From: a virus
Taxonomy: Duplodnaviria; Heunggongvirae; Uroviricota; Caudoviricetes
IMG/VR virus record: IMGVR_UViG_3300033143_002710
DNA length: 64,000 nucleotides
Direction: 5' to 3' (one strand)
Within the stretch, counting starts at the first letter, position 1; each line of letters opens with the position of its first letter. A model generated the notes under the pieces. The model did not search any database and was not told the origin of the DNA. It saw only the letters and a list, made by a program, of their open reading frames with translations. Of this stretch, positions 7,239 to 62,229 are shown piece after piece. The translations under genes and the position numbers were made by a program.

Positions 7239-7257
7239 ATTTATCCCCTTGTTTTGG

Positions 7258-7331
7258 TTGGCTCGGTAGGAATCGAACCTACAACCTCTCGCGTATCAGG
7301 CGAACGCTCTAACCAAATGAGCTACGAGCCA
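7258..7331 (-). tRNA. tRNA-Ile (anticodon GAT)
   Basis: Reverse complement is TGGCTCG TA GCTC ATTTGGTTA GAGC G TTCGC CTGATAC GCGAG AGGTT GTAGG TTCGATT CCTAC CGAGCCA A. Full cloverleaf, anticodon loop CTGATAC. Confidence 0.85.
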
Positions 7332-7431
7332 TAAATTTAGCATGTTGGCCTACCAACTCCGGGGTGCGACTCCCGCACAGATCACGCTGTACACGGTTAG
7401 CTTTGCCCAATCGGGCGGCGGCTCTACCTGG

Positions 7432-7504
7432 TGCCGAATCGAGGAGTCGAACCCCGGACAAACTGCTTACAAGGCAGTTGCTCTACCAACTGAGCTAATT
7501 CGGC
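7432..7504 (-). tRNA. tRNA-Thr (anticodon TGT)
   Basis: Reverse complement is GCCGAAT TA GCTC AGTTGGTA GAGC A ACTGC CTTGTAA GCAGT TTGTC CGGGG TTCGACT CCTCG ATTCGGC A. Perfect acceptor and anticodon stems. Confidence 0.85.
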
Positions 7505-7513
7505 GAAATTTGG

Positions 7514-7585
7514 TTGGTCGGGTAGGGCTCGAACCTACAACCTCCGTAGTACAACACGGGCTCTGCCAATTGGAGCTACCGACCA
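7514..7585 (-). tRNA. tRNA with non-canonical 16-nt anticodon stem-loop (candidate GTA/Tyr-like anticodon)
   Basis: The acceptor stem (TGGTCGG/CCGACCA), D-arm (GCTC...GAGC) and T-arm (GTAGG TTCGAGC CCTAC) are canonical. The anticodon arm CCGTG TTGTAC TACGG has a 6-nt loop, or a 4-bp stem with an 8-nt loop. Confidence 0.6.
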
Positions 7586-13148: not shown

Positions 13149-13415
13149 TTACAGATAGCTGGCGTCCCGCAATCGCGAGTTTATTCCGACGGGCAACGAT
13201 GAGAAGAACGCACCCACTTCAGCGACGGTCGTAAACCCATCAATGGACAACTCCTCTATCAGATCATCTTCGCTGTCGCTTACGACTGAAATTTCCAACG
13301 TGGCAGGAAACGGAACAACATTCACGGCTGCTCCGACGGGAATTGCAATATTACTCAGGCCAGATCGAATCTGCGCCCGTGTATATGGGTTAGAAAAATG
13401 CATTAATACTATCAT
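13149..13415 (-). CDS. hypothetical protein downstream of the tail fibre gene (possible fibre assembly factor)
   Basis: 88-aa ORF whose start abuts the J-like gene stop. The function is a guess from position. Confidence 0.4.
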   Translation of the reverse strand: MIVLMHFSNPYTRAQIRSGLSNIAIPVGAAVNVVPFPATLEISVVSDSEDDLIEELSIDGFTTVAEVGAFFSSLPVGINSRLRDASYL

Positions 13416-19400: not shown

Positions 19401-20803
19401 CGAATCTTTGGATCGGTCGATTCAACAGTGGTTCGTCTTACGCGAATGTCATAGGTGTCCTGGTCAAGATCGGGACTGTAAAAACTGAATCTTACCGCAC
19501 TTGTTTGCGCTTTCGTTATGATGGTTGATTTTCCATAGACCGCCTTGTGCTTAACAAAGCCAACTACATTTTCATCCACATCAAAGATAAACTCTCTATT
19601 GTGACTGCCTGCTACATGTATATGATCTCCGGCATCACGAAAAGTCGTTCTGTCTTCATACGGAACGCTCGATGTGACATTTCCATCGGCGTCATAAACA
19701 TTGTACGGATAATATCTGTACCACTCATCTACATCTGATACAAAACCCTGGTCCTTTAATGTGGTCCAGATAGTCGGCTCACTAACTTTTTTATATTCTA
19801 TTTCGAATATGACCTGGACCACTGATCTGGTTCCGTCATCATTATATTGAACCAAACCTTGTGGCGCAACAAAGTCCAGCCTGAACGCATCTATTGTGCC
19901 TGTTGTTCTTGTTTGAAATGTGTCCGTTACAGATGTGGCTACAGATATTGGACTGACGGTATTTCCGAACCATTCAATTATGTTATCGTTGTCGGTGTCT
20001 CCAAGACGTATTTTCACCTCTGCATCTAAAAATCCAGCTATGTCCTGTTCATTAAGCTCTATGTCACTTATGCCTGCGCTAACACCTTCGCCCGCATTCA
20101 ACAGTAGATAAAGATATTGAGCGCCAGCCTGGTTTCTGGTGTGGAAATTTATGATATTTCCGGCCATTCTAAAGGGGCCGTAACAAACTGGAAGTGGGGT
20201 GCCTTCATCAGAAGTATTTTTTGCTCCGTCGATACCATAGGTTTTGGAATCTTCAAAGCTACTTGATCCTCCCAAAGCATCTGGAGCTATTGGCGGTAAT
20301 ATTGCATTTACAAGTAGAGAGCCTGCTATTACGAACGCAATCTCAATTGCGCTCGTGGCAAATGTCCCAAACTCAAACGCCCCTGCAAACTCTGGAGCGT
20401 AAATGGTAATAACAACCATAAGAACTAGACGCAATATCGCTTTACTATCGTTCTCGTCTCCACCGCCCGGAACTTCAAAAATAACAACCACATCGCCTTT
20501 GGCTATGAGACTGTCCTTCCAATCTTCCTTTGGAATTATGTCGCCGTTTATACTAGCTACTATAACCTCGTCGGGTAACTCTCGAGCCTTCTTGGATATC
20601 ACATCAAAAATAGAAAGTCGCTCTCCTACTTTCTTAAATTCGTGGGTATGTTTGGTGTTGTCAAACGGATTTGTGGAATATATGACGCGAGCCATACCTT
20701 CAGGAATTGGGGCAACCCTGAGTTTGGCGTTCGACTTTAATTCTGCTTTACAGAGGCTCATAATATCCCAATACTCTACGTTCCCAAATTCGCAGGTACT
20801 CAA
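13415..20803 (-). CDS. central tail fibre / host-specificity protein (lambda gpJ-like) with an N-terminal gpI-like region, ~9 internal repeat modules and collagen-like linkers
   Basis: 2462-aa ORF. The N-terminal ~230 aa resemble tail assembly protein I (EGMARVIY..., a hydrophobic segment, PLPVCYGPFRMAG). gpJ-like regions follow. The central part contains ~90-aa modules (YTFATG..NGW..P.AG..LW...TDD/S) separated by (G-X-D)n triplets such as GTDGTDGTDG and GADGADGADG. A distinct C-terminal domain follows. Confidence 0.9.
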   Translation of the reverse strand: MSTCEFGNVEYWDIMSLCKAELKSNAKLRVAPIPEGMARVIYSTNPFDNTKHTHEFKKVGERLSIFDVISKKARELPDEVIVASINGDIIPKEDWKDSLIAKGDVVVIFEVPGGGDENDSKAILRLVLMVVITIYAPEFAGAFEFGTFATSAIEIAFVIAGSLLVNAILPPIAPDALGGSSSFEDSKTYGIDGAKNTSDEGTPLPVCYGPFRMAGNIINFHTRNQAGAQYLYLLLNAGEGVSAGISDIELNEQDIAGFLDAEVKIRLGDTDNDNIIEWFGNTVSPISVATSVTDTFQTRTTGTIDAFRLDFVAPQGLVQYNDDGTRSVVQVIFEIEYKKVSEPTIWTTLKDQGFVSDVDEWYRYYPYNVYDADGNVTSSVPYEDRTTFRDAGDHIHVAGSHNREFIFDVDENVVGFVKHKAVYGKSTIITKAQTSAVRFSFYSPDLDQDTYDIRVRRTTVESTDPKIRDAITWTDLNEIVNDTVTYKHTALLGLKIRLTDQLSSFPTVTYLNSGRVIKFWDSINKVWSSGPSKNPAWVVYDALTNQRFGGSVDESRIDIDAWIEWGEYCDAEGLTFQGVFDTASNLWDASMHIFRAGHARPIKMGTKYSVAIDRAIAPSQMFTVGNIIKGSFNQKWLSLSDRANEVELHYFDESDRFKRRTIKVYDALSVTGAAQNTASATMYGIVDKTRAAEEATYMLLNNRYLKSVVTFKSPMEAIAVVVGDVFALQHDQPEWSVGGRFVSGSTTTSMEVDREITFDGAKSYKFMARFDYLVRDVATITDITGRKITLSGYAGATNINRCWLTADHTVDVRITRVDTDTIWVDDVSGLSVTDSLDLIETDAIEIRDVVAATSGDLTTIPLNSALDSAPSEHFIYMVGEDTIMESEWRVTKLDINKNLEVTITGATYDEQIYDWTPLTVQPEPDTGQSRIVPHVINLDAVEGSVSIGGILRPVIDISWDLPENFENYAGVLVELNIGGGGYEFAKIQRGGLSTTVEVSLNDAADVRVVAMSSDGRFALNSTAPEITGLTMTGDVIAPGVPTSAAISIGTVGLQVSWVNPVDSDFAGCDIKRNTTDDEPGATIIFTTDKLQVSYEDVQATIAANSYFYWIRAVDSNGNSSAWVATTPTDLQPIEFVDGYNTATLIAYKRSASAPTDDPGVSITYTFATADWTPGNGWSKTMPAGSDPLYALSATAFSTEETDDVLSADWSAPALILQDGADGGDGLNVATAYIYQRTATDSAPSVPSVTATLTFATGAITGLDNGWTDTVPAAGSNPFLWVTLATASAATATDDILTGEWQTPQHLAEDGADGTPGSPGSDGFNTATLTAFKRAAVAPTDDPGVSITYTFSTADWTPGNSWSKTIPAGSDPLYALSATARSQATTDDVLSADWSAPVLILQDGADGADGADGDAGLNVATAYIYQRTATDSAPSVPSVTATFTFSTGNITGLDNGWTDTVPAAGSNPFLWVTLATASAAAATDDILTGEWQTPQHLAEDGADGATGGDGSDGLNNATVYLYNKNTSDVTPPSAFSGTFTYTFATAILSGGTPNGWTQDPPTVAAGEFLWVRQAVASADTATDSVPTADFAAAVVSSGTGTDGTDGTDGTDGTDGLNVATVYIYQRTATDSAPTLPTTASATYTFATGALDALDNGWTSTIPAAGTDDFLWASFATASNTAATDEILAAEWQAAQKLAETGDTGDTGGDGTDGLNNATVTLFASNTSGVTPPSAFSGTFTYTFATGVLSGGTPNGWSQTAPTLAAGDYLWQRQAPASSNTATDSVPTADFNAAQVVGIGGADGGDGADGADGDAGLNNATVTLFASNTDGGTPPSAFSGTFTYTFSTGVLSGGTLNGWTQNAPTLAAGDYLWQRQAVASSNTATDSVPTADFNAAQVVGIGGADGVAGVDGLVVAAVRFNTKTFTVASSPGDMYIHGFNSGTPADVPGSLLFDGVAVAIPNAYITTSQLENQGFLVFDTAELGAFTTTAPLGASTDMAACRMQSSATIGTVQWQYDNNTEWVNFTPTTEHIVIGTYNASAANLIANATITSPMTLSSQHITAGRIEIADLSSLAAIIGQLDTRTPGADANASPRLRLSDTNSPIQVFRPDDDTTVLFGLTEDGNGDLVMTLLGDFSPDSLNTANAYSQTGISALALRLGLSGGGQGGHVSFATPVDVTAGPATKALTIGTSITSAGQDILLNFQFVDDDSGFGIGGKVRALWTIKWQVNIDSGGWNDVAGASYNFTGVYEEYVDPQEEEIEYWSHTLNATRSFNYSSTVADSVYEFRISYEKTAGSLFDPKFTVANADEASAADISPASKPGFFVGAGSLALSGSTTWKTMDLTTEVYDPDANYTISADVVTISSPGYYEITYNFNYHPTGGATNDSIGCRVTKNGTTTVLSGSQSRQLIYKANTRPASVTSTFIALFVANDTIRLQQNDESGTTGNQVGTSTSLTIKKIRNT

Positions 20804-42669: not shown

Positions 42670-43914
42670 TTACAAGGATATGCCAGCGATGATGATCTTG
42701 CGCAGCGGGTATTTGAACTCGATTGCGTAACCCAAGGCGTCGGCCGAGTGTTCTGTTCCCATCTTTTTATCTACTTCACGACAGCCTTCCTTGTAGATTG
42801 TTTGCTCCAATGAGTCTATCAGGTGTTGGCAGCCGCTGTCGACCCGTAGCCTGGTCGAACCATCTGCCGCCCGAAGCATTCTGTTCACGCAATTCACTCT
42901 ATCAGCCACTGGCGGGTGTTTTCTTCGATGATAGATTCGCCTGTAACCAGACTCTCTAAAGATGTCCAGATCAGTCTCGCCTCGAGCATGTTGAGTGTAC
43001 GCACCCGCTGGATCAGGAAATATCGCCGTGACACTCTTGTACCGCCAATGCCTTCTGTCCAGTTCACTCACTGCCTCTGCTGTTGAGCTATTTGGCAGCA
43101 CAATCTCGTCTATTACCCAAACCTCACCGTTCTTCTGAGGCTGCATAACGACAGCAGACATTGGGTCTCTGTTGAAGTCCTGACCAACCCACAGTGGTAG
43201 CTCCTTGTTGAACTTGTACTCGCCAACATGAACAGACCTGTCAAATGGGTAGTAGACCCGGCCGCCCATAGTCTCGAACGACGCCTCAAACTCCTGCTTG
43301 AAAGATCGCTCGTCCATGTCTTGTCGTGCCTGTTCGATTTCTGACGCTGGAACAAACGGGCTGTCGATTGATTTGAACTGCCAGCTTTCCCACCTTTTGG
43401 CTGCGACTAGCTTTGGGTTCTGTCCGAACTGGTACACATCATGGAGATAATTGAATGATTTCGGCGTGCCGATGAAGGTAGCTCTGCCAGCAGTGGTTGC
43501 CAGCGTTGGTCGAAGTGCCTTCTTCCATGTGTCAGGGTGCATGTCCTGAAACTCATCCAGCACCACATGATTCAAACCTACACCGCGCAAGGAGTCATAT
43601 TTGTCCGCACCCTTGAGTGTAATAATTGATCTGTTCTTCAGCAGAATATACAGACCGGTCTCGTTGGTCTTTCGTATCCACGCTCTAGGGATGGCGTCCA
43701 GAAGCTCCGGCCACATGATGGTTTTTGCCATCGCATAGGTTGGAGCGACGTACCAGACCAGTTGTCGTGGTAATGCGGCCGCCCTAATCATCTCGGTTCT
43801 GCCAAGTTGAGTTTTGCCCCAACGTCTACCGGCCACCACAACTTTGAATCGCGCCAGCGACCGCCACACTATGGCCTGGCCTTTGTGCAGCTTTAGAGCT
43901 TTTGCGCGAGACAT
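42670..43914 (-). CDS. terminase large subunit
   Basis: Walker A VVAGRRWGKTQ, ATPase followed by an RNase H-like nuclease region (IFPDPAG...). Confidence 0.9.
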   Translation of the reverse strand: MSRAKALKLHKGQAIVWRSLARFKVVVAGRRWGKTQLGRTEMIRAAALPRQLVWYVAPTYAMAKTIMWPELLDAIPRAWIRKTNETGLYILLKNRSIITLKGADKYDSLRGVGLNHVVLDEFQDMHPDTWKKALRPTLATTAGRATFIGTPKSFNYLHDVYQFGQNPKLVAAKRWESWQFKSIDSPFVPASEIEQARQDMDERSFKQEFEASFETMGGRVYYPFDRSVHVGEYKFNKELPLWVGQDFNRDPMSAVVMQPQKNGEVWVIDEIVLPNSSTAEAVSELDRRHWRYKSVTAIFPDPAGAYTQHARGETDLDIFRESGYRRIYHRRKHPPVADRVNCVNRMLRAADGSTRLRVDSGCQHLIDSLEQTIYKEGCREVDKKMGTEHSADALGYAIEFKYPLRKIIIAGISL

Positions 43915-44567
43915 TAGACTCCTTCCCCAGCTATCTCGTCCGCGAGTTGGTCGATTGTCTTCTCGCTTTCCTTGATCTCAAGATCAGGGTCACCAAGCCT
44001 TTCAATTTCATCCAACTCGTCTTGAGTAAACTCCTCAATCGGCAATACCGGAATCTCATCGCCAGCGTCTGGTTCGCGATCCAAACCTGTGATTGCCCAC
44101 CTATCTGCGCGAGCCATCTGAATACCTGCCATCGCCAACTTCAACGTTGCAATGTCATCCTTCGCGTCAGAAATTGGAGTTTCGTCATTTATCGCCTTGG
44201 CTATTCTGGCGAATATCAGCTTCGCTATTGTCGTAGCGTATTTGTAATGCTCGTCCTTCGAACTCTTGATCCGCTTGATATTGTTTGCGGCGTCAGAGAT
44301 CATCTCTCTTGCCGTTTCATCTTTGGCTGCTTCAGCGTAGACCTCTGCTTTAGAACCCTTCTCGATGCCGCGCTTCGATAGGGCCTGGCTCAGATACGAT
44401 GCGTTCGCTCCGAATGTTGTGGCTAGGTCTACGAGTGTGAAATCACCTGACGCCCACATCTCCTCGATCTGGCCCCACTCAGTAGGAGTGAGACGCTTTC
44501 CAGTTTTGAGAGGCGTCTTTTTCTTTCGAATCGGTTTCTTTCTTATTTTTCTACTGGCAGCAGTCAT
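43914..44567 (-). CDS. terminase small subunit (HTH)
   Basis: The track ORF 43914..44633 starts at TTG. A more likely ATG at 44567 gives MTAASRKIRKK..., with a basic N-terminus and HTH FTLVDLATTFGANASYLSQALSKRG. It lies immediately upstream of TerL. Confidence 0.6.
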   Translation of the reverse strand: MTAASRKIRKKPIRKKKTPLKTGKRLTPTEWGQIEEMWASGDFTLVDLATTFGANASYLSQALSKRGIEKGSKAEVYAEAAKDETAREMISDAANNIKRIKSSKDEHYKYATTIAKLIFARIAKAINDETPISDAKDDIATLKLAMAGIQMARADRWAITGLDREPDAGDEIPVLPIEEFTQDELDEIERLGDPDLEIKESEKTIDQLADEIAGEGV

Positions 44568-44696
44568 AGCCCACCAAGTAAAAATGGGCCGTCGCCAAGA
44601 GGGACCAGGGGGTGTGCGACGACCCGTTGACAACCGTTGTAAAGATATATTTTATCACAAAATTCAATTTACTATTCCCGAAATCGCTAAATAAAT

Positions 44697-44717
44697 CCCC
44701 GTGCCGGGGTCTTTTCT
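44697..44717. terminator. short GC hairpin with flanking T/A runs (possible bidirectional terminator)
   Basis: CCCCG-TGC-CGGGG followed by TCTTTTCT on the plus strand, and by ATTTATTTAG on the minus strand. Confidence 0.35.
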
Positions 44718-44838
44718 CAGCCGTCGTTTTCCCTTTGCTATAATAACTCTTGGACCCTTGGGGCTTAGACCTTAAATACTCTAAAAGCTAATTAAAGCGA
44801 AAAATTAAAATCCCCGGAATGAAATCCAATCCACAGAA

Positions 44839-45153
44839 TTAGACCTCACTCGCAAGCTCCCTGGAAAGAACCCTGGACATGGCTTCTGGTGTCGAGGTTC
44901 TTTTTCTGGATACAAATTCGTAACCATTTTTTGTGGCACACAAGGTGATACGTCTCCTGGCTCTGCGCTTCTGGGTTTCTTTCTTTTCAATCATACCCTT
45001 TGATATCAGATTTCGAATGATGAACTGGATTGAGGGCTTATTTGTGTCATAAAAGACTCTCTGGATTATTTCGTCCAGATCACAAAAGGAGCCATTTGAA
45101 TTTGCTCTTACAATGACTGTTAGTACATTTTCTTGCTTGTCCGTGAGTATCAC
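44839..45153 (-). CDS. winged-helix DNA-binding protein (MarR-like)
   Basis: FIIRNLISKGMIEKK-type recognition helix and a basic C-terminal wing. Confidence 0.5.
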   Translation of the reverse strand: MILTDKQENVLTVIVRANSNGSFCDLDEIIQRVFYDTNKPSIQFIIRNLISKGMIEKKETQKRRARRRITLCATKNGYEFVSRKRTSTPEAMSRVLSRELASEV

Positions 45154-46052
45154 GATTGTTCTCCATCTAATAAAATCAGCTTTTCTCCGGTCGCTTGCCT
45201 GTCAAAAGCCGTGAGTGGTAGGGTGTCTGGAATCTTGCGTCCAAAGTCTGGATTCTCGTACACGCCGTATTCGGGCATGGCAAAGACCAACTGTTGCGTG
45301 TTGCGCAACACACTCTCTATGGGCATGTCTTCCATTACTCGGCGTTTCTTTTCCAATCTTACATCGCCAACGCCCTGTTTTTCAAGGGAACTGCGATAAT
45401 AATAGAAATTTCGAAGTAAAGGTTCCAGCCCTTTTCTTTCACTTTCTGACTTCGCCATCAGTTCATCTCTGAGGGCAATGTAGTCTATTGGGTTACAGTC
45501 GAAGTGCAGACCGAAAAACTCAATTCCCTCTTTGTAGTAAGGTGATCGACGCGGTTTGGTGAACAAGAATCCCGCCTTTTGAGCGAACTGATTGTATCTG
45601 CTCATGGAGGATTGTATTTCAGCGAATCTCTTACCTTCCATTCTGGCCGCCAGGTTCAACGCTCTCACCGCCACACCGATTCCTCGATACATTGTGTCGA
45701 CCACGGTGCGCGAATTCAGACACACATTCTGGTTCAGCCATTTGAATCGATGAACGTTCGTTATTCTGGTGTCTCCTCCGCCTGCTGCCAATATAGGAAA
45801 CAATTCATGTCGAGATTTCAGCAAACCACGCGGAGAAGTCATAACGACACACCCGACCAGATCATCAAACAGACTTATTCGATACACTCGTCCAGCCGTT
45901 CTGCCTGTCGATTTGTAATGCAACTCGTGCAGAGCTTCCCAATCCGACTTGTCTCCCGGCGAGATTATCATCTTGCGAAGAAGATCGAATTTAGCGGGCA
46001 CGAGCAGGCGCTGGATCTCGACATCGACAATTGCTGAAGAATTTTTACTCAT
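45150..46052 (-). CDS. GNAT-like acetyltransferase domain protein with C-terminal extension
   Basis: Segment NSRTVVDTMYRGIGVAVRALNLAA matches GNAT motif A (R/Q-x-x-G-x-G/A). The remaining ~150 aa are unassigned. Confidence 0.45.
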   Translation of the reverse strand: MSKNSSAIVDVEIQRLLVPAKFDLLRKMIISPGDKSDWEALHELHYKSTGRTAGRVYRISLFDDLVGCVVMTSPRGLLKSRHELFPILAAGGGDTRITNVHRFKWLNQNVCLNSRTVVDTMYRGIGVAVRALNLAARMEGKRFAEIQSSMSRYNQFAQKAGFLFTKPRRSPYYKEGIEFFGLHFDCNPIDYIALRDELMAKSESERKGLEPLLRNFYYYRSSLEKQGVGDVRLEKKRRVMEDMPIESVLRNTQQLVFAMPEYGVYENPDFGRKIPDTLPLTAFDRQATGEKLILLDGEQS

Positions 46053-46063
46053 CTGTTAAATTT

Positions 46064-46336
46064 CTACTTTTTCTCTGGAATTGTGTTGACAATCTCTTTG
46101 AATTCGTCGAATGGTAAATACCAAAATGGATATCTTTCTTTGAACGGAGCGTCTTTTGGTAAGCTCGTGTTCATCAGATATGGAAACACTTCAGGGTGAG
46201 TTGCGATAAACGCAATGACTCTCAGCACATTCATTAGATTGCTGGCATCCCAATGCCCTGATCGTAAAGCTCGAAAGGCTACAAGTGCAATGAAAGAAAA
46301 GAATCCTAGGCCGTAGCCAACAAAGAAGCTACTCAT
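46064..46336 (-). CDS. small membrane protein
   Basis: N-terminal TM FFVGYGLGFFSFIALVAF. Overlaps the ATPase gene by 8 nt. Confidence 0.45.
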   Translation of the reverse strand: MSSFFVGYGLGFFSFIALVAFRALRSGHWDASNLMNVLRVIAFIATHPEVFPYLMNTSLPKDAPFKERYPFWYLPFDEFKEIVNTIPEKK

Positions 46337-46973
46337 TTTTATCTCCTCGAGAAATTTCCACTTTATCTCTGAATCTCTTTTTCACAACCAGGGATGGCCC
46401 CAACTCTTCCAGGAGATCCTCGTGGGTGGTGGCCACGATCAAAGTCTTTCCCTCTTTTCGAGCGTGTTTCTGTAGAGAGAACGCAACAATCTTTGCCGTA
46501 ACGCGATCAAGAACGGCACCAAATTCATCAGCAACCCATACATCTGCTGGTAGATTTAACAGGTGGGCCAGTCTCAGTCGATATCGCTGACCATCGGACA
46601 ATTCACTTGGCTTACGAATGAACAGATAAGCGTCATTCAAACCAACTCTGGATAGGATCATCAGAGCTTCTTTTGTAGTCTTGCCAACTTGGTCGACTAG
46701 CGGAACATTTTCGAGTTGAACATCGTCAATATTCATCACGACTTGGTTATCGAGTTGCAGCGCCGTTTCACATTGTTTCAGCAGCACCGTTTTGCCAGAT
46801 CCAGATTGACCTGTTATATAGACGACATCTCCGTTTTCGATTTCCATTTCGAAATCCTCAAACAAGATGAACTCTCGATCATCAAGCCCTAGTCCAAAAG
46901 ACTCGGCGACTTCGATTACTCGATCAGTTCGCGCTACCTTTGTGGAGAATTTCTTGCTAACTGTGAATTTCAT
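46329..46973 (-). CDS. stand-alone ABC-type ATPase (214 aa)
   Basis: Walker A GQSGSGKT, ABC signature LSDGQRYR, Walker B VWVADEF and H-loop ATTHED. Confidence 0.75.
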   Translation of the reverse strand: MKFTVSKKFSTKVARTDRVIEVAESFGLGLDDREFILFEDFEMEIENGDVVYITGQSGSGKTVLLKQCETALQLDNQVVMNIDDVQLENVPLVDQVGKTTKEALMILSRVGLNDAYLFIRKPSELSDGQRYRLRLAHLLNLPADVWVADEFGAVLDRVTAKIVAFSLQKHARKEGKTLIVATTHEDLLEELGPSLVVKKRFRDKVEISRGDKNE

Positions 46974-47048
46974 AGCCTTTCCTGTGATAAATTTACGATT
47001 TCGATGAATGGATTTGGCTACCTGGCCGCCTAAGCCGTCACCTGGATG

Positions 47049-47729
47049 CTAATTGTTGTCAAAATAGTCTTTGGCTATTGCTACCAGTGCCTTTGCTGTG
47101 TCTACCTCATAGACACCTCGCATTGTACTGAGCCACCTCGCCACTAATTTTGCGTCCCCTGCTTCGAAAAATCCAAACCCCAGAACTTCCTTTATTGGAA
47201 CGCTTCTGTCTTTTGCATCTGCGCTGTCTGATTTTGCGTCGGAGACATTTTCGTTTGTGATGTCATCTTCACCGACCAGGGCTGACAAGTCCATCGAGCC
47301 AAGGTCTTGAGACATGAACTCGAGTTCCTTTTCTGACAGACCCATAGCGGCCATCAAATCGTCTGCGTCGTCTTCTGCGATCTCCATGATCTCAGCGTTC
47401 AGGATATTTGTATCAACGTCGCCAACAGCCACACGATTGTCCGCTATGCGACTGGCGTTCGCTTCTTTAGCTGTCATGTCGGTTCGAACAAGAACGGGCA
47501 CATGGGTGTACTTTAGATAGATTGCCGCAAGTCGTCTACCGTGCCCTTTTATGATTACCCCAGCGCCGTCAATTACGATTGGAACATCGAAGCCGAACTT
47601 CTGGATTGACAGGGCGATGCTCTTGACTTGCTTTTCGTCGTGAATCTTGGCGTTTCCTGGGTACGGGTGAACCTGCTCTATTGGCCAGCTTTCAACCTTT
47701 CCTTCGCCTGCTAAATTATTTGTAATCAT
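47049..47729 (-). CDS. ParB/Srx-like nuclease-domain protein
   Basis: ParB N-terminal domain with the GHGRRLAA box and the downstream VPVLVR...ADN pattern. Acidic C-terminus. Confidence 0.75.
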   Translation of the reverse strand: MITNNLAGEGKVESWPIEQVHPYPGNAKIHDEKQVKSIALSIQKFGFDVPIVIDGAGVIIKGHGRRLAAIYLKYTHVPVLVRTDMTAKEANASRIADNRVAVGDVDTNILNAEIMEIAEDDADDLMAAMGLSEKELEFMSQDLGSMDLSALVGEDDITNENVSDAKSDSADAKDRSVPIKEVLGFGFFEAGDAKLVARWLSTMRGVYEVDTAKALVAIAKDYFDNN

Positions 47730-48099
47730 TGCGGTATCTAAGCTCCTCTTTGAATAGCTCTCTTGAACTTCCGATTGATTTCTCTGAGTTCAATATGGTC
47801 TCAATGTGACTCGTTTTCATATCCATAAGGAATATTCGCTTGAGCGGTTGGTCGCCTTTCTTACCAAAAGTTCCCCATCTGAAATGCTTTCTGTTGTGTT
47901 CGTGAACGCCTTCTATTTCGACTATCGACAGGTCTTCTGCTTGGACCTCATTTGTTGATCGACCAAAATAGCTCATTCCTCCGTCTACCACGTAGAGTTC
48001 GCCGTTCTCGTCTTGATACGCCACGTAATCGTGTCGATGAAAGCTCTCGATGACTGTGCCGTCAGGGGTTTTCATTGCGTTGCGAAATATTCTACTCAT
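47716..48099 (-). CDS. hypothetical protein
   Basis: 127-aa ORF between the two ParB-like genes. Confidence 0.5.
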   Translation of the reverse strand: MSRIFRNAMKTPDGTVIESFHRHDYVAYQDENGELYVVDGGMSYFGRSTNEVQAEDLSIVEIEGVHEHNRKHFRWGTFGKKGDQPLKRIFLMDMKTSHIETILNSEKSIGSSRELFKEELRYRNDYK

Positions 48100-48736
48100 C
48101 TTTTTCCCCTAGCAGCAGAAAGACCAAAGCGTCTCCTGCATTTGTGAGTGCATTGCTTCCATCGAAACCCTGGGCTTTCATTATTTTGTTGATCACCTCT
48201 GAAATCTCTTCAGCATCTCTTACTGGAACCTTGAATCTCATAATGGTATCGGTTGGCGGAGCTTTAGTTTCATCTACCAGTGGAACGTCGTCGTCATCGT
48301 CAAGGTTCAAATCGTCGATGTCTATTTCGCTAGTGGCGATGATGGCCGATAAATCGTTGTCAGAATAGGGAAGAAAGGTTGTAATGTCTTCCAGATCGAG
48401 TTCGGCTAATACTTCTGCGAGCTTGCCTGCGTCGTCATGACCCCATCGACCGTTATCTGCCAGACCGATCTCTTTTGCCGTTACATCGTCAATCTCGCCA
48501 AGGTTGATTACCGGTAACTCAGTGAGACCCAGGCGAATGGCCGATTCCCATCTGTGGTGTCCACCCAAAATCTCCAGAACTCCGACGTCCAATTCTCGCG
48601 CTATAATTGGTTTGAAGAATCCGAGTCTTTTAATACTCGCGTCCAACTTGTGTTCGGACGCTGGATCGAGGACGTTTGGGTTCCAGGGATTGCCTCTTAG
48701 TTCGTTGGGTTCTACTATTAGGTGAGTGTAAGCCAT
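48092..48736 (-). CDS. ParB/Srx-like nuclease-domain protein (second copy)
   Basis: ILGGHHRWESAIRLGLTELPV matches the ParB box. Acidic C-terminal half. Confidence 0.7.
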   Translation of the reverse strand: MAYTHLIVEPNELRGNPWNPNVLDPASEHKLDASIKRLGFFKPIIARELDVGVLEILGGHHRWESAIRLGLTELPVINLGEIDDVTAKEIGLADNGRWGHDDAGKLAEVLAELDLEDITTFLPYSDNDLSAIIATSEIDIDDLNLDDDDDVPLVDETKAPPTDTIMRFKVPVRDAEEISEVINKIMKAQGFDGSNALTNAGDALVFLLLGEKDE

Positions 48737-48918
48737 TGTCGCTCTTTGATTGTTGCTTCGGATTTCCTTATACTATCAGTCTAATACTTTGCAGGCAAAT
48801 ATCTTGAACACCGTAACGATAATCTACAATCCGGTGGCGGCAAAAATAGTTAGCCCCACGCACCAGGTGGACCTTCATATCCAGCACATTCTGTCGTATA
48901 ACGTATCTGGCGCGGATA
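48737..48918. promoter_or_regulatory. divergent intergenic region between the minus-strand block and the plus-strand early module (expected promoters)
   Basis: 182-bp AT-rich spacer separating oppositely oriented gene blocks. Candidate -10 GATAAT/TATACT elements are present, but no confident -35/-10 pair. Confidence 0.4.
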
Positions 48919-50324
48919 TGAGTGATTCCTATCAGAGCGGTTATTGGGATGGTCGATCTAGTTTTTACGAAATGCGCAAACATAGATTCCCCGCTGGATT
49001 TGTTCCGGCAGTCATAAAGGGTCTTCGTCAATTAGGGTACGAGGTCAACTCTCGTCGAGCCAAAAAGCCAAAACCTCTTGGCCCAGAGCGTCCTATCTTT
49101 GACGAATTTCAGTACAAAGACGAACGCTACGATTTCCAAGCTGAGACCGTTGATCGACTGATAAGACACGGTTCGATGATCGCACAGGTTGCTACTGGTG
49201 GCGGCAAGTCTCGTATCGCTCAGATCGCCACCGCCAGGATACAACGTCCAACGCTTTTTCTAACCACTAGAAAGGTTTTGATGTATCAGATGAGAGGTCA
49301 TTACGTCGACATGCTAAAGTATGACGGTATGCCGAAGCACCATAAAGTAGGTGTGATGGGTGATGGGGAGTGGAGTCCGGAACCCTGGATTAATGTCGGA
49401 ATGACTCAGACACTTATCTCCAGATTAAAACCCGCTGGCGTACTTGATTCCCAAGAGAAGCAGGACGCTCAAGATAAACGAATACGAGAGACTATTGCCT
49501 TGCTCGAGCGGTTCGAGCTTGTCATTCTTGAAGAGGCTCACGAAGCGTCCGGAAACAGTTATTACGATATTATGAAACGATGTAAGAATGCTCACTATCG
49601 ACTCGCACTAACTGCCACCCCTTTCATGAAGGAAGATGAAGAGGGCAATATGAATTTGATGGCATGTGCAGGTGCCATTGGAATAAGGGTTTCTGAAAAG
49701 CAGTTGATCGACTGTGGAATTTTGGCCAGACCGGTTTTCAAATATGTCGTTCCAGAGAAGCCTAAGTTTTTGCTTAGAAACACTTCTTGGCAGGCAGCCT
49801 ATCGTCTCGGGGTCGTAGAGAGTGTTTCCAGAAATGCTTTGATTTTGCAGAACGGAATAAAGTCCTCCAAATATAACCTTCCCACTCTCGTGCTTGTGCA
49901 GCAGCAGAAACATGGAAAGATTCTCGAGGCCGCCTTTCGTAAGAATGGCGTCAGGTGTAAATTTATTTTTGGCCCAAGCAAGACGCATGAGCGCGATCTA
50001 GCTCTAAAGGAATTGGAGTCTGGCGTTATACAGGTCTTGATAGGCTCGAATATTCTGGACGTTGGTGTCGATTGTCCGGCACTTGGCATGGTCATGAATG
50101 CTGCTGGAGGAAAAGCTGAAGTCAATCTTCGCCAGAGAATCGGTCGAGGACTTCGAGCGAAGAAGGTCGGCCCAAACGTCTGCTTCTTTCTTGACTTCAC
50201 CGATATTCATAATAAACATCTTGGAAAGCATAGCGCCGCTCGACGCGGTATAGTCCAGGCTACACCTGGCTTTGCTGAGAATATACTGCTGGATTCACAG
50301 GATTTTCCATATGATTTATTCTAA
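48919..50324 (+). CDS. SF2 DEAH-type DNA helicase
   Basis: Motif I ATGGGKS, motif II LEEAHE, motif III TATP and motif VI QRIGRGLR. The track ORF starts at 48750, but the ATG at 48919 (MSDSYQ) is more plausible. Confidence 0.8.
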
Positions 50325-50354
50325 ACCTCTCTTTTCTAGTGCTATCATGCTGAT

Positions 50355-50576
50355 ATGACCTCGAACGCAGCAGAAAAAACGCCTTTGACTATTTCTTTGG
50401 AAACCAAAACGCTTGGTGTAGTCAAATTTACGGCCTTTTCTAGTATCTCTGACGCTGCGGATTACGCAATCTTACTCATATCATCAGGAGAGGCAATACC
50501 CAAGTCGATCAGGCTTGGTGATGAAGTTGTTATGAGTGAAGCCGATATCAACCTCTATTGGGAATCGTCACTATGA
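50355..50576 (+). CDS. hypothetical protein
   Basis: 73-aa ORF. Confidence 0.4.
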   Translation: MTSNAAEKTPLTISLETKTLGVVKFTAFSSISDAADYAILLISSGEAIPKSIRLGDEVVMSEADINLYWESSL

Positions 50577-50585
50577 TCCCTATTC

Positions 50586-50900
50586 TTGGAAAACGGATTT
50601 ACCAGAGTAGGAGAAATTATGTCTGATTACGATAATCGAGAATTGCTAAAGCTAATGAAGGAGCTTTCCTATCGACACTTCAATGTAGAATGGGAAAACG
50701 GACTCGAGTATATTCTTTGGCATTGGATGCACCATCCCTCTCCATTAACGGTTCATGACGAACACAGGCTTTACATGGCGCACTCTCGTGCTAAGGGATG
50801 GTTTGCGATTCTTGACGAACCCTCAGAAGGAGTTCAGTTTATGACTACCGACAAATGGATCAGACTGTTCCAGGATGAGTTTGATGGGGCGGTGAACTAA
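50586..50900 (+). CDS. hypothetical protein
   Basis: 104-aa ORF. Confidence 0.45.
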   Translation: MENGFTRVGEIMSDYDNRELLKLMKELSYRHFNVEWENGLEYILWHWMHHPSPLTVHDEHRLYMAHSRAKGWFAILDEPSEGVQFMTTDKWIRLFQDEFDGAVN

Positions 50901-50901
50901 T

Positions 50902-51117
50902 GTGGTCGCTGACAGCCCTGATGTATCTTTTGGACCGGATACGTGCAGCATATGTGAATGTGATTTTTCATTTGAAAATGAAGGTGGCGTTTCTGGCTTT
51001 ATTGGTATTATTGGCGTCTCTTTCTGCCCAACATGTCATGCCGGGCTACACGATCTCTATCTCTCGTGGTACGGCGAAGACGACAACGACGAAGTAGGAG
51101 ATAAAAATGGGAACTAA
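50902..51117 (+). CDS. zinc-ribbon protein (CxxC...CxxC)
   Basis: CSICEC ... CPTCH. Preferred over the overlapping frame 50900..51097. Its 3' end contains AGGAG for the next gene. Confidence 0.45.
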   Translation: MVADSPDVSFGPDTCSICECDFSFENEGGVSGFIGIIGVSFCPTCHAGLHDLYLSWYGEDDNDEVGDKNGN

Positions 51118-51501: not shown

Positions 51502-51674
51502 TGAGAACCAAAGAAGAAGTCGAAAGTGTTAGGCTTAAAGTTAATCCATACGAGGGAAGCAAATTTCCAGGAATGACTTATGAAGAAGGTATTGAAGTTG
51601 CTTTGTCTTGGGTTTCAGGCGACACTGAAGACTTTGAGATTGAGGGAGACCCCTATTTTGACCCGGAGTACTGA
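51502..51674 (+). CDS. hypothetical small acidic protein
   Basis: ATG at 51502 directly after the upstream stop. 57 aa. Confidence 0.4.
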
Positions 51675-51675
51675 C

Positions 51676-52176
51676 ATGATAATGAGCATTAAAGGCACTA
51701 ATCTTCTAAAATTGATCGAAGAGTTTCGCGCTTATCCGTATGACGATCAAACGGGTGACGATACTGAAGTCTGGGAGCCAGGTGCCACCATTGGTTACGG
51801 CCATCTGATTAGCAAAGCTGAGTGGCCCAATTTTTGCGGCAGGCGTATCAGCACTTTTGAAGCTGATCGTATATTTGCAAAAGACCTGTTCCCTTTTGAA
51901 CTTTGCGTTAAGGATGCAATCGAAAGCTCTTTCAAGCTATTCAAAAACGAATACGACGCTTTGGTTATGCTCGCCTTCAACATCGGGAGAAGTGGCTTTG
52001 CAAGTTCGTCGGTCGTAAAGCTGATCAACGATGAACATGCGGAGACGAGTTACGACAGTTTAGAGCAGGCATGGATGGCCTGGAACAAGTCGCAGGGCAA
52101 AGTCATGCGCGGACTGATCAATCGAAGAAATGCCGAATGGCAGATATATTCCAACGGGATTTATGAACGCTGGTAA
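51676..52176 (+). CDS. endolysin, GH24 phage lysozyme (T4L/lambda R-like fold)
   Basis: EEFRAYPYDDQTGDDTEVWEPGATIGYGH has the catalytic E...D...T pattern. The C-terminus GLINRRNAEWQIY is typical of this family. Confidence 0.85.
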   Translation: MIMSIKGTNLLKLIEEFRAYPYDDQTGDDTEVWEPGATIGYGHLISKAEWPNFCGRRISTFEADRIFAKDLFPFELCVKDAIESSFKLFKNEYDALVMLAFNIGRSGFASSSVVKLINDEHAETSYDSLEQAWMAWNKSQGKVMRGLINRRNAEWQIYSNGIYERW

Positions 52177-53037: not shown

Positions 53038-53421
53038 ATGACGCCAGATCGTTACGATACTTTTGTGTCCGACTGTTGGATGGGCGGCGTACAACCTTTG
53101 AAAGAACAGGTTGCTGTAACCGCTCTTGGACTGGCTGGCGAATCTGCCGAGGTCATGGAAAAGGTTTTGTCTGCCGCATCAGCGTGTCTGGCTGCCGGAA
53201 ACCATGCCGAGCGAATCAAGAAGGTCACTCGCGGAGACGATCCGAAACTAAGTCATAATGTCAATGTAGGCAAAGAGCTTGGTGATATTTTGTTTTACGT
53301 ATCGAACCAGGCTCGCTTACACGGCATGACTCTTCAGGATATCATGCTGCTGAATTACGATAAGTTGTCTGGTCGGATCGAGCGTCTCGGAACTTTACGA
53401 GGTGACGGGGACAATCGATAA
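53038..53421 (+). CDS. mazG: MazG-like nucleotide pyrophosphohydrolase
   Basis: Segments GLAGESAEVMEKV and ELGDILFYV...LQDIMLLNYDKL, typical of all-alpha NTP pyrophosphatases. Confidence 0.75.
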   Translation: MTPDRYDTFVSDCWMGGVQPLKEQVAVTALGLAGESAEVMEKVLSAASACLAAGNHAERIKKVTRGDDPKLSHNVNVGKELGDILFYVSNQARLHGMTLQDIMLLNYDKLSGRIERLGTLRGDGDNR

Positions 53422-54956: not shown

Positions 54957-55219
54957 CTGTGAATCTCACTAACAGAAAAGGCTACTGGTTCAAATTGTTT
55001 GTTGCGTTGAGTATTTTGGTCAATGCAATATTTGGCGGTCAAATGTATGAGTCTGCTTGTGCAAAGGCGTGGCGAATGAGACATTACGGTGGATTTCGCG
55101 GACTGTGGGCTGTTATAACTATTTGGCTAATGAACTTTTTTGAAAGGGATCATTGCAGAAAAAGCGAAATTGCATACAAGAGAATTCAATCTGGACTAAA
55201 CAAGGGCAGAATCGAATGA
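54941..55219 (+). CDS. small membrane protein
   Basis: Two hydrophobic helices. Confidence 0.4.
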   Translation: MQWWIAVNLTNRKGYWFKLFVALSILVNAIFGGQMYESACAKAWRMRHYGGFRGLWAVITIWLMNFFERDHCRKSEIAYKRIQSGLNKGRIE

Positions 55220-56427
55220 TATATCATAAGGGTGAAAGAGTTCACGCGAAAATTTGGACAAACCAGGTCGAAGAGTCGGCTATGAAGCAGATCGATGATC
55301 TCTGTGGTCTGCCGTTTATTCACAAACATATAGCGGTCATGCCAGACGTTCATGCTGGTTATGGCTCGACCGTTGGCTCTGTAATCCCAACCAGAGGAGC
55401 TATCATTCCTTCTGCCGTTGGTGTCGACATTGGATGCGGAATGATGGCTATTCAGCTTGATCTTAATGCGGCCCAACTTCCGGACAGTTTGTTGGATGCC
55501 AGACTTTCTATTGAAGCCAGTGTTCCTCATGGTCGCTCCGCAAATGGAGGGCCAGGTGACAAAGGCGCTTGGGATAATTTACCGACTGATGTTGGGGATT
55601 TGTGGCGAGCCGAATTGTACGACGGTCTTATGGATATCTCTGAGCGTCATCCAAAAATTCTTAAAGGCCATGTCAACACGCATAGACATCTTGGAACTCT
55701 TGGTACGGGCAATCATTTCATCGAAGTGTGTCTTGACGAGACGGACGCCGTTTGGGTGATGCTGCACTCAGGCTCTCGTGGAATTGGAAATCGAATTGGC
55801 CAGTATTTTATCAATCTCGCCAAAGAGGATATGAGAAAGTGGTTTATCAATCTTCCAGAAAAAGACCTGTCTTATTTTCCAGAAGGCACCGATCACTTTG
55901 ATGATTATTGGAAGGCTGTATCTTGGGCGCAAGAATACGCCTCTATGAATCGTGAAATTATGATGGCTAGGACTCTCGTCGCTCTTCGTCATTCGCTGGG
56001 TTTAGGAATACACATTCAAAAGAAGGCTGTGAACTGTCATCACAACTACGTCGCGCTGGAAAATCACTTTGGTGCCAATGTATACGTTACACGCAAAGGC
56101 GCTGTTAGAGCGCGTGTGGGTGACTTGGGGATCATTCCGGGAAGCATGGGTACGCGATCATACATAGTCGAGGGACTTGGCAACAAAGATTCGTTCAATT
56201 CCTGCTCTCACGGCGCTGGTCGAATCATGAGTCGCACAAAGGCTCGAAAGATATTCACCGTTGATGATTTGGAAAAGCAGACAATTGGTGTAGAATGTAG
56301 GAAGGACTCTGATGTGATTGATGAAATCCCAGGTTCCTACAAGGACATCGACGAAGTGATGGCAAATCAGGCTGATCTCGTTAAGCCGATCCACACTCTT
56401 CGTCAGATTGTTTGTGTGAAAGGATAA
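55216..56427 (+). CDS. rtcB: RtcB RNA ligase
   Basis: MPDVHAGYG, GVDIGCGM, GTGNHFIE, HSGSRGIGN, CHHNYV and HGAGR motifs. Likely start is the ATG at 55216. Confidence 0.95.
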   Translation: MIYHKGERVHAKIWTNQVEESAMKQIDDLCGLPFIHKHIAVMPDVHAGYGSTVGSVIPTRGAIIPSAVGVDIGCGMMAIQLDLNAAQLPDSLLDARLSIEASVPHGRSANGGPGDKGAWDNLPTDVGDLWRAELYDGLMDISERHPKILKGHVNTHRHLGTLGTGNHFIEVCLDETDAVWVMLHSGSRGIGNRIGQYFINLAKEDMRKWFINLPEKDLSYFPEGTDHFDDYWKAVSWAQEYASMNREIMMARTLVALRHSLGLGIHIQKKAVNCHHNYVALENHFGANVYVTRKGAVRARVGDLGIIPGSMGTRSYIVEGLGNKDSFNSCSHGAGRIMSRTKARKIFTVDDLEKQTIGVECRKDSDVIDEIPGSYKDIDEVMANQADLVKPIHTLRQIVCVKG

Positions 56428-56502
56428 TGGCGAGTAGCTCAATGGTAGAGTGCCTGACTGTTAATCAGGGGGTTGTAGGTTCGAGTCCTACCTTGCCAGC
56501 CA
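56428..56502 (+). tRNA. tRNA-Asn (anticodon GTT), CCA encoded
   Basis: TGGCGAG TA GCTC AATGGTA GAGT G CCTGA CTGTTAA TCAGG GGGTT GTAGG TTCGAGT CCTAC CTTGCCA G CCA. Starts on the nucleotide after the rtcB stop. Confidence 0.85.
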
Positions 56503-56507
56503 GTATT

Positions 56508-56584
56508 CGGAGTGTGGCGCAGTCTGGTAGCGCACTTGCTTTGGGAGCATGGGGCCGTAGGTTCAAATCCTACCATTCCGACCA
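56508..56584 (+). tRNA. tRNA-Pro (anticodon TGG), CCA encoded
   Basis: CGGAGTG TG GCGC AGTCTGGTA GCGC A CTTGC TTTGGGA GCATG GGGCC GTAGG TTCAAAT CCTAC CATTCCG A CCA. One T-T mismatch in the anticodon stem. Confidence 0.75.
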
Positions 56585-56599
56585 ATTTGAGTCATTGAT

Positions 56600-57166
56600 A
56601 TGCAAGCCTTAGACTGGATCAATGACATTATGCGCTGGTTCGGCCAGTTTATTCCAGAGTGGGACTTGCTCGATCCGACAGAGGGCGGAGTAAAGTTCAA
56701 ACCTGGCGGTAAGATAGTCTTGCTGAAACCCGGCCATATTTATTGGTTCTGGCCTATTACGACCAATGTTTACACGATTGAGACTAAACGGCAGCCGCTA
56801 GTTATATCTCAGCGACTGACAACGGCTGATGACATTTCTGTATTGGTCGAAACCGTCATCGTATATGTGATTGATGATGTTGAGAAGGCTATCGTCGAAA
56901 CACGCGATCATGAAGATACTATTTCAGAGATCGGCGAGAAGGTCACTGTTAAGCCCGTCATGAGTAGAACTTTTGAGAATATTCGAATTGACATTGCCGA
57001 TTCGAACAAACTCAACAATGAAATCAAGTCCGGCGCTCGTTCTGAGTTGGGTGCTTACGGAGTCAAAGTTGTAGACGGTTACATATCCAGCTTTGCAGAA
57101 ACAAAAGTATTCAGCCATGACGGGTCGGGCATGGTTATAGAGGAAGACGAATATGAAGAAGAGTAA
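56600..57166 (+). CDS. SPFH (band-7/stomatin/prohibitin)-like domain protein
   Basis: The core VKFKPGGKIVLLKPGHIYWFWPITTNVYTIETKRQPLVISQRLTTADDISVLVETVIVY matches the SPFH pattern. Acidic C-terminus. Confidence 0.55.
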   Translation: MQALDWINDIMRWFGQFIPEWDLLDPTEGGVKFKPGGKIVLLKPGHIYWFWPITTNVYTIETKRQPLVISQRLTTADDISVLVETVIVYVIDDVEKAIVETRDHEDTISEIGEKVTVKPVMSRTFENIRIDIADSNKLNNEIKSGARSELGAYGVKVVDGYISSFAETKVFSHDGSGMVIEEDEYEEE

Positions 57167-61479: not shown

Positions 61480-62229
61480 GTGCTTGGCGAACGTGTAATT
61501 TCCTGGTTTTCCTGTGGCGCAGCCAGTGCGGTAGCATCCAAACTCGCCATACAAGAATATGACGCCGTTGAAGTGATCTATCAGGAGACTCACTCGGAAC
61601 ACCCAGACAACGAACGATTTCTGGTCGATTGTGAACAATGGTTCAAACAGCCTATTATTCGACTGGCATCTGATCGTTATCATGATATCTGGGATGTATT
61701 CGAAAGGCGTCGATATCTTTCAGGCACTAATGGCGCTCTTTGCACTTCCGAACTCAAACGCATGGTTGCCGAGAAATACATCAGACACGGCATAGACCTC
61801 GAGATATTTGGCTATACGGTTGAGGAGCGAGATCGAGTCATTCGTTTTTGCAAAAACAACCCAGAAAGACGAATACGTGCCGTTCTTCTGGAACGAGGTT
61901 TAACCAAAGAAGACTGTCTTGGAATAGTCAATAAGGCAAATATTGAAATCCCCGTCATGTATAGGCTGGGCTATAATCACAATAATTGCATAGGATGCGT
62001 AAAAGCGGGATTCGGTTACTGGAACAAAATCAGAGTAGATTTCCCCGACACGTTTGATCGTATGGCCAGGTTGGAGCGCAAACTGAATATGGCCATCTGT
62101 AAATCTGACAGAAAGGGTGACAAGAGCAAGCCTGTATTTCTAGATGAACTAGACCCCAATAGAGGGCATCATCCTACAGAGCCAAAGATAAGCTGCGGCA
62201 TCATGTGTGAGTCAGAATTCGTTGAGTAG
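61480..62229 (+). CDS. PAPS reductase-family (PP-loop ATP pyrophosphatase, CysH/DndC-like) protein
   Basis: N-terminal PP-loop variant ISWFSCGAASAV and downstream CIGC. GTG start. Confidence 0.65.
   Translation: MLGERVISWFSCGAASAVASKLAIQEYDAVEVIYQETHSEHPDNERFLVDCEQWFKQPIIRLASDRYHDIWDVFERRRYLSGTNGALCTSELKRMVAEKYIRHGIDLEIFGYTVEERDRVIRFCKNNPERRIRAVLLERGLTKEDCLGIVNKANIEIPVMYRLGYNHNNCIGCVKAGFGYWNKIRVDFPDTFDRMARLERKLNMAICKSDRKGDKSKPVFLDELDPNRGHHPTEPKISCGIMCESEFVE

Follow-up and report, generated by a model that had tools for sequence, protein, structure and literature searches.

The window analysed here is a 64,000-nucleotide (nt) stretch of viral DNA (IMG/VR record IMGVR_UViG_3300033143_002710), a relative of the ∼100-120-kb siphophage group that includes SSU5-like phages, Nickievirus and Rhizobium RHEph10-like phages, to which its DNA identity is 60-70% at best. 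Its subject is a block of seven open reading frames (ORFs), all on the minus strand, that contains genes for two ParB-like proteins, an ATP-binding cassette (ABC) ATPase and a GNAT-fold acyltransferase, and with which a long leftward operon begins that runs on into genes for a small-terminase-like protein (TerS-like), the large terminase (TerL), the portal and structural proteins. The first gene of the operon encodes ParB2 (48092-48736), a protein with a ParB/Srx N-terminal domain and the motif GGHHRW, and is followed by a 127-amino-acid (aa) ORF (47716-48099) and by ParB1 (47049-47729), a ParB/Srx-fold protein with the motif KGHGRRLAA. A stand-alone ABC ATPase of 214 aa (46329-46973), a 90-aa ORF with one N-terminal hydrophobic segment (46064-46336), the 300-aa GNAT-fold protein (45150-46052), which is presumably the catalytic subunit, and a 104-aa winged helix-turn-helix (wHTH)-like protein (44839-45153) complete the block. 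Overlaps of 8 nt join ParB2 to the 127-aa ORF and the ABC gene to the 90-aa ORF, the 127-aa ORF and ParB1 share 14 nt, and the GNAT and wHTH genes, which are translationally coupled, share 4 nt. These co-oriented ORFs lie at exactly the coordinates given by the original prediction, whose domain assignments also hold: the ABC ATPase, the two ParB/Srx-fold proteins, the predicted GNAT fold of the 300-aa protein, the wHTH (through weak matches) and the single hydrophobic segment of the 90-aa protein.

A GNAT profile recovered 80 related loci from IMG/VR (L170-L249), 42 of which have full flanks and come from SSU5-like phage-plasmids, Nickievirus and Rhizobium phages. ParB2, ParB1, ABC, GNAT and TerL are colinear on one strand in 42/42 of the latter, so that the ParB, ABC and GNAT neighbourhood, whose conservation had been proposed as a check, is kept throughout. 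A wHTH homologue lies directly downstream of the GNAT gene in 80/80 loci (iterated search, worst E = 4e-14), and in 79 of the 80 its alignment starts 6-302 nt past the end of the GNAT alignment. Neither tblastn nor jackhmmer found the 127-aa or the 90-aa gene in any of the 42 full-flank loci. The 127-aa ORF has a weak match to DUF7695 only (1.3e-4, below the cut-off) and none in PHROG, and the slot that it fills between ParB2 and ParB1 is taken in phiK7B1 by a 54-aa gene unrelated to it and is empty in Klebsiella. The 90-aa ORF, with its one Kyte-Doolittle hydrophobic segment, matches PHROG 28633 (4e-12; function unknown), and its position is filled in phiK7B1 and Klebsiella by unrelated non-membrane proteins; because the distance from ABC to GNAT ranges from 59 to 2154 nt across the 42 loci, this position is a variable slot. 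With five genes kept, two absent from every related locus and the gaps variable, the unit therefore comprises five core genes (ParB2, ParB1, ABC, GNAT and wHTH) and two fillers, and not the seven genes first proposed; the 127-aa and 90-aa proteins were rejected as members of the system.

Both the ABC/GNAT split and the gap between the ParB genes serve as sites of insertion for unrelated small genes, which differ from phage to phage; among them are DUF2829 in Rhizobium phages and the gene for a 183-aa protein in Klebsiella. In Pseudomonas phage phiK7B1 and a Klebsiella SSU5-type phage-plasmid, the order is ParB, ParB, ABC, small gene, GNAT, small gene, TerS-like and TerL. The same block is present in published genomes that include SSU5, nickie, phiK7B1, RHEph10 and Klebsiella phage-plasmids, where it sits under misleading names ('ABC transporter', 'partition protein').

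ParB2 matches Pfam ParB_N (7.7e-9), PHROG 723 (1e-57) and Noc/ParB sequences in the PDB (∼1e-6), has orthologues in Klebsiella (40% identity) and phiK7B1, and is 33% identical to ParB1 over 120 aa. The predicted model of ParB1 consists of an Srx-like N-domain, short helices, an acidic disordered linker and a C-terminal two-helix domain in the form of a helical hairpin, with no helix-turn-helix (HTH), and PY..NAK.H, GHGRR and ADNR were read as its analogues of boxes I, II and III. PDB and Pfam matches of the ParB proteins are limited to the N-domain. The wHTH protein has weak winged-helix matches only in Pfam (E 0.004-0.08, residues 3-64) and matches PHROG 900 (5e-18).

The ABC ATPase, the GNAT protein and their relatives

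The ABC ATPase is matched by Pfam ABC_tran (E = 2.6e-12), and its translation contains a Walker A (GQSGSGKT), a signature (LSDGQ), a Walker B (VWVADE) and an H-loop (ATTH). Searches of Pfam, NCBIfam, PADLOC and the PDB with the sequence of the 300-aa protein were empty, and it was structure prediction alone that revealed the GNAT fold, which is modelled at residues ∼20-170 and followed by a helical C-terminal domain. The acyl-CoA motif A of GNATs (R/Q-x-x-G-x-G/A) is intact as R123-G-I-G126-V-A, with R123 and G126 invariant. Among the viral structure matches are Mom and several long proteins labelled 'endonuclease-like' or 'homing endonuclease', which may be Mom-nuclease fusions.

Homologues of both proteins carry the JGI label COG2401, 'ABC-type ATPase with predicted acetyltransferase domain'. 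With an alignment of 46 GNAT homologues as the profile, an exhaustive search returned 824 relatives; those that are distant have a length of 450-560 aa, with the GNAT part at ∼200-480 (E down to 6e-24), and an N-terminal ABC_tran domain is present in all 10 that were scanned. The A1 hidden Markov model (HMM) matches the fused proteins L003 (5e-30) and L004 (9e-25). When 39 fused proteins were aligned, GxSGSGK, ELSDGQ.YR, DEF..LD and ATTH were found to be followed by HY[KR], YRGIG and YNPF.KAG, as in the window proteins, and the gene order of the window, ABC upstream of GNAT on the same strand with the one 90-aa gene between them, is the domain order of the fusions. The ABC ATPase is 34% identical to gp038 of Tenacibaculum phage pT24 (E = 5e-24), whose ABC protein belongs to the same ABC–GNAT family, and matches gp86 of Rhodococcus phage Jace (E = 5e-22). 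Because fused homologues exist, idiosyncratic motifs are held in common and the order is the same, the ABC ATPase and the GNAT protein are, as judged from sequence, the N-terminal and C-terminal halves of one split ABC–GNAT (COG2401) protein and probably form one functional unit.

A GNAT coupled to an ABC ATPase has been predicted to put an uncharacterised acyl modification on a DNA base, with pT24 as the example (Iyer et al. 2021, PMC7824862); where the prediction is made, Iyer 2013 is cited for it. With a role already predicted for the COG2401 family and the block present in published genomes, the view that the genes correspond to no described module had to be given up. We found no experimental study of the family in the literature, and the function of the whole ABC–GNAT family is predicted.

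Fusions and neighbours tie the family to ParB, to DNA and to the terminase in other phages. ParB, a Zn-ribbon, ABC and GNAT are joined in triple fusions (P0331, P0364, P0303, P0355 and L088:7011-9011) that are matched by an HMM built from phage ParB proteins at E 2e-11 to 9e-6; Pfam ParB_N reaches a sub-threshold 0.01 in two of them. Three unrelated phages (Gordonia phage Mariokart, Rhodococcus phage Jace and Pseudoalteromonas phage SL25) each have a single ParB gene directly 5' of the gene for a fused ABC–GNAT protein, and ParB1 is the paralogue closest to the single genes of Jace and SL25. In Mariokart, ParB and ABC–GNAT (gp1-gp2) are followed by a formyltransferase-like gp3 and by TerL (gp4); in Jace they are gp85-gp86; and in SL25, whose ParB matches the ParB1 family HMM at 6e-37, the order is ParB, ABC–GNAT, TerS-like and TerL. 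A PolB–ABC–GNAT fusion of 1260 aa recurs in phage replication modules (24 contigs read; indexed in 35 collection blocks), and one fused ABC–GNAT gene lies in an SPbeta-like replication module and one is fused to Gins51_C. Adjacency of the module to the terminase is seen in at least four unrelated lineages.

Unusual partners fused to ABC–GNAT (P0321/P0317 on L004-L006, P0286, P0279 and P0315) are a family-B DNA polymerase, a Gins51 C-terminal domain and a TFIIB repeat, and one ABC–GNAT copy has a LAGLIDADG intein inside its ABC domain.

The closest fused relatives are found in Bathyarchaeia proviruses that resemble tailed viruses (L010-L089 from IMG/VR, L090-L169 from GTDB), often several in one metagenome-assembled genome (at least five contigs in one). 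TerL lies immediately upstream of ABC–GNAT in 39/72 of the IMG/VR loci and 57/80 of the GTDB loci. Many of these contigs stop 0-200 nt from the ABC–GNAT gene, which suggests either a genome terminus or an assembly break.

Genes for small-molecule enzymes adjoin the fused gene as well. In three phage groups that are unrelated to each other (L007:1799-2446, L251:5044-5661 and L253:4849-5322), the gene that comes directly after ABC–GNAT encodes a Formyl_trans_N protein, namely in Gordonia (1.8e-8), Pseudomonas phage Komp_PAO1_1 (3e-17) and a Porphyromonas phage (4e-11). In Jace the neighbours are an aspartate decarboxylase (2e-33) and a CoA-transferase III (2e-8; listed with L008:6125-7236), and this trio suggests local synthesis of a donor of the beta-alanyl-CoA type. 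Together, the formyltransferase and decarboxylase/CoA-transferase neighbours hint at donors other than acetyl-CoA or at follow-up chemistry on the adduct, as is typical of hypermodification.

A candidate DNA acylation module and rival explanations

The reading that we favour, to which we give a little less than an even chance, is that the core is a late-expressed, ParB-assisted, ATP- and acyl-CoA-dependent module for the modification of phage DNA. A DNA-directed role is suggested by the ParB and PolB fusions, by the ParB–ABC–GNAT–terminase order and by the formyltransferase or decarboxylase/CoA-transferase neighbours. The GNAT subunit would move an acyl group from acyl-CoA onto the exocyclic amine of a DNA base, and the ABC ATPase, to which the GNAT is fused in most relatives, would dimerise on ATP, its ATP cycle holding or opening duplex DNA for the GNAT. 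ParB1 and ParB2 may act as activators that engage double-stranded DNA, by analogy with a phage ParB-like protein that has a nucleotide-binding and a C-terminal domain and no DNA-binding domain, and that is the obligatory activator, on double-stranded DNA only, of a DNA-modifying dioxygenase (O'Toole et al. 2026, PMC13229309). The wHTH protein would give DNA binding or regulation. Acylation would take place shortly before packaging, and in the next host the DNA so modified would be protected from restriction; of the roles first suggested for the block, counter-defence in this form fits best, with a packaging accessory as a live rival. A more specific version, which we hold as a tentative proposal and somewhat less probable than the general one, is that a multi-subunit machine of ParB, ABC and GNAT, with the wHTH protein, installs an undescribed N-acyl base, a plain acyl in SSU5-like phages and a beta-alanyl-type or formylated aminoacyl group in phages that add the aspartate decarboxylase and CoA-transferase or the formyltransferase, and is tied to packaging so that only capsid-bound DNA is modified. 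The same machine would then be at work in enterobacterial phage-plasmids, actinophages, Bacteroidota phages and Bathyarchaeia proviruses.

Several observations weigh against a DNA acylation module. The case for DNA as the substrate has no direct evidence behind it, and literature searches turned up no account of modified bases for SSU5, nickie or the Gordonia phages. SSU5-type loci carry no acyl-donor genes, and the Bathyarchaeia and SPbeta-like versions of ABC–GNAT have no separate ParB partner. The ABC domain is likest the nucleotide-binding domains of transporters and not the DNA-acting ABCs of the SMC, Rad50 or UvrA type, and membership of the GNAT in the Mom family was rejected at the sequence level (hhalign probability 0.5%). 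The consistent terminase adjacency could mean packaging rather than modification, and the best PDB structural matches of the GNAT are small-molecule and protein N-acetyltransferases (RimI, Naa10/Naa50, GCN5).

These last matches would suit an ABC–GNAT that is brought to DNA by the ParB and wHTH proteins and there acetylates a DNA-associated protein, such as a host nucleoid protein, RNA polymerase, or the terminase, portal or replication proteins of the phage, favouring late phage functions. Host proteins are known to be modified by some phage GNATs, Rac among them (PMC7824862), and a protein target sited on DNA would fit the PolB fusion and the TerL adjacency too. Regulatory acetylation, however, requires no adjoining formyltransferase or aspartate decarboxylase and CoA-transferase, and no target co-varies with the module across its SSU5-like, actinophage, Bacteroidota-phage and archaeal proviral contexts; we regard a protein substrate as unlikely, though the foremost of the rivals. 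Ranked just behind it is an accessory role in packaging initiation, in which ParB1, ParB2 and the wHTH protein recognise or condense DNA near pac or cos and an ABC clamp passes it to TerS/TerL, the GNAT being regulatory or vestigial. This would account for the place of the module immediately upstream of TerS/TerL in 42/42 SSU5-type loci, for the ParB → ABC–GNAT → (TerS) → TerL order in Gordonia and Pseudoalteromonas phages, and for the TerL genes next to the Bathyarchaeia ABC–GNAT and the many contigs that end after it. Yet DNA-modification genes often adjoin terminases anyway: phage T-dioxygenases very commonly have ParB and terminase genes beside them, and terminases rank with the domains that co-occur most with these enzymes (19%; PMC13229309). 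Elsewhere, moreover, ABC–GNAT is found in replication modules or fused to PolB, far from the terminase, or after tail genes, as in Komp_PAO1_1 and Porphyromonas phage 009a, and the invariant acyl-CoA and catalytic-looking residues point to real chemistry.

An RNA substrate, with acetylation of phage tRNAs or host RNA in the manner of TmcA/NAT10 (ac4C), appears quite improbable. Although an ATP-driven GNAT acting on tRNA is established in TmcA, and the window holds several tRNAs and an RtcB ligase, the ATPase is of the ABC type where TmcA has a RecD-like helicase, the links to ParB, PolB, GINS and the terminase are all DNA-directed, and the module is also present in phages of ∼35 kb (SL25 and Porphyromonas phages). 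Partition of a plasmid or prophage, or ABC transport, is what public records imply with the names 'ParB partition protein' and 'ABC transporter ATP-binding protein', and many relatives are indeed SSU5-type phage-plasmids; the block is equally kept, however, in phages of Nickievirus and Rhizobium whose genomes were deposited as linear, and this explanation is effectively refuted. As had been argued from the start, a ParAB partition system is rejected: the block has no ParA-type ATPase, its sole ATPase being of the ABC type, the ParB1 model lacks an HTH, and a search for parS or pac repeats across 43800-51000 gave short, chance-level repeats only and nothing parS-like. A transporter was rejected as well, there being no permease and no hydrophobic neighbour other than the single-segment 90-aa protein, which is kept in 0/42 loci. 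A small remainder of the probability, which we place behind the packaging role and ahead of RNA acetylation, lies with none of the explanations named here.

Surroundings of the module

The TerS-like DNA-binding protein (43914-44633, minus strand) matches PHROG 867 (4e-34) and PHROG 1206, 'terminase small subunit' (1.7e-3), and was found in 42/42 loci by iterated search; TerL (42670-43914, minus strand) matches PHROG 2 (3e-49). The module is directly upstream of the terminase genes, as originally described. Between the wHTH and TerS-like genes lies a 205-nt non-coding stretch (44634-44838), and the SSU5 and Cyrano records begin inside the equivalent gap. In the relatives such a gap is the rule, at an alignment distance of 72-874 nt, and a late promoter or the site of packaging could lie within it. 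Within it a hairpin said to close off the gene cluster is indeed present at 44697-44709 on the minus strand, where a 5-bp GC stem is followed by ATTTATTT, a T-rich tail, and it may be a weak terminator or attenuator; terminator-like sites in the region, however, are not enriched, with 13 found against 8.3±2.6 expected by chance. A similar GC hairpin and T-rich tract was seen in five close relatives in a whole-locus search, at an approximate position around or just after the wHTH gene.

On the other side of the module, a divergent SF2 helicase gene (48750-50324, plus strand; ResIII/DEAD/Helicase_C) marks the start of the leftward operon, and the sign of the GC skew flips at this point. The divergent helicase arrangement also occurs in phiK7B1 and the Klebsiella phage-plasmid.

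In phages, enzymes of the PAPS-reductase class frequently occur together with a ParB-like partner (IbrA/IbrB-type). The window has a PAPS-reductase-like gene at 61480-62229 (plus strand; PHROG 424, 1.5e-45; no Pfam match at 1e-3), which was set aside as a partner of the ParB genes, being 13 kb distant and matched in PHROG but not in Pfam. An RtcB-type tRNA ligase gene (PHROG 1075, 6e-149) is followed directly by tRNA-Asn and tRNA-Pro (55153-56584, plus strand), and a second tRNA cluster (Ile, Thr) lies at 1869-1946 and 7255-7585 on the minus strand, together with two aberrant ARAGORN calls with a 4-nt 'tata' and a 2-nt 'gt' anticodon. The rightward arm encodes an endolysin (51580-52176; PHROG 7), a MazG-like pyrophosphohydrolase (53038-53421; Pfam 9e-7) and an SPFH/Band-7 protein (56600-57166; Pfam 5e-13), all on the plus strand. 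A 2462-aa ORF inside the structural operon (13415-20803, minus strand) is presumably a tape-measure or tail protein.

Significance and comparison with known systems

The module is a further example of a system that is known computationally and uncharacterised biochemically, and it is not categorically new. The split with its variable slot, the ParB pair, the obligatory wHTH, the ParB triple fusions, the formyltransferase and PanD/CoA-transferase neighbours and the terminase adjacency in several lineages may or may not be new with respect to Iyer 2013. The analysis corrects a widespread mis-annotation and separates core from filler genes. If the DNA acylation reading is true, the acylation of DNA bases by an enzyme that an ABC ATPase drives and ParB-like proteins assist would be a new class of DNA modification, and the module would provide a second case of HTH-less ParB proteins as cofactors of DNA-modifying enzymes, with a bearing on restriction evasion and on the behaviour of the DNA in sequencing and cloning. 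Its carriers are SSU5-type phage-plasmids, which Salmonella, E. coli and Klebsiella commonly harbour, phages of plant pathogens and rhizobia that are used or considered for biocontrol, actinophages and archaeal proviruses. The system is widespread, and several of the hosts and phages can be cultured, which makes it experimentally tractable and the question directly testable.

No catalogued defence system was recognised by PADLOC, in agreement with the original prediction: the ABC protein gave generic matches to mad3/mad8 and the ParB N-domain to the model of a ParB-fused type II methyltransferase, and the GNAT gave none. Like ParABS, Noc and KorB proteins, the ParB proteins of the window have an N-terminal ParB/Srx fold with motifs resembling boxes I, II and III, but their C-terminal halves are acidic and the partner ATPase is of the ABC type. 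TmcA and NAT10 also couple an NTPase to a GNAT for the acylation of a base in structured nucleic acid, while differing in the class of ATPase (a RecD-like helicase as opposed to an ABC), in the GNAT family and in that their substrate is RNA. Mom of phage Mu, a GNAT-fold DNA adenine methylcarbamoylase, acts without an ABC ATPase or a ParB. The systems of 5mYOX clade E with ParB resemble the window in that an HTH-less ParB, as in the ParB1 model, stands beside a DNA-modifying enzyme, an analogy of architecture with homology known at the superfamily level. The enzyme partner in the window, however, is an ABC ATPase with a GNAT and not an Fe/2OG dioxygenase, and Pfam and PHROG scans found no TET/JBP-type dioxygenase among the seven proteins or the flanking genes. 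The closest likeness in composition is to the fused ABC–GNAT proteins of COG2401, such as that of pT24, in which both halves are homologous to the window proteins, ABC precedes GNAT, the family-specific LSDGQ and the GNAT motifs are present and the gene is phage-borne. The window differs from these fusions in that separate genes encode the ABC and GNAT halves, with a slot of variable content between them, and in that two ParB/Srx paralogues and a wHTH protein are encoded alongside, at a fixed place upstream of TerS/TerL.

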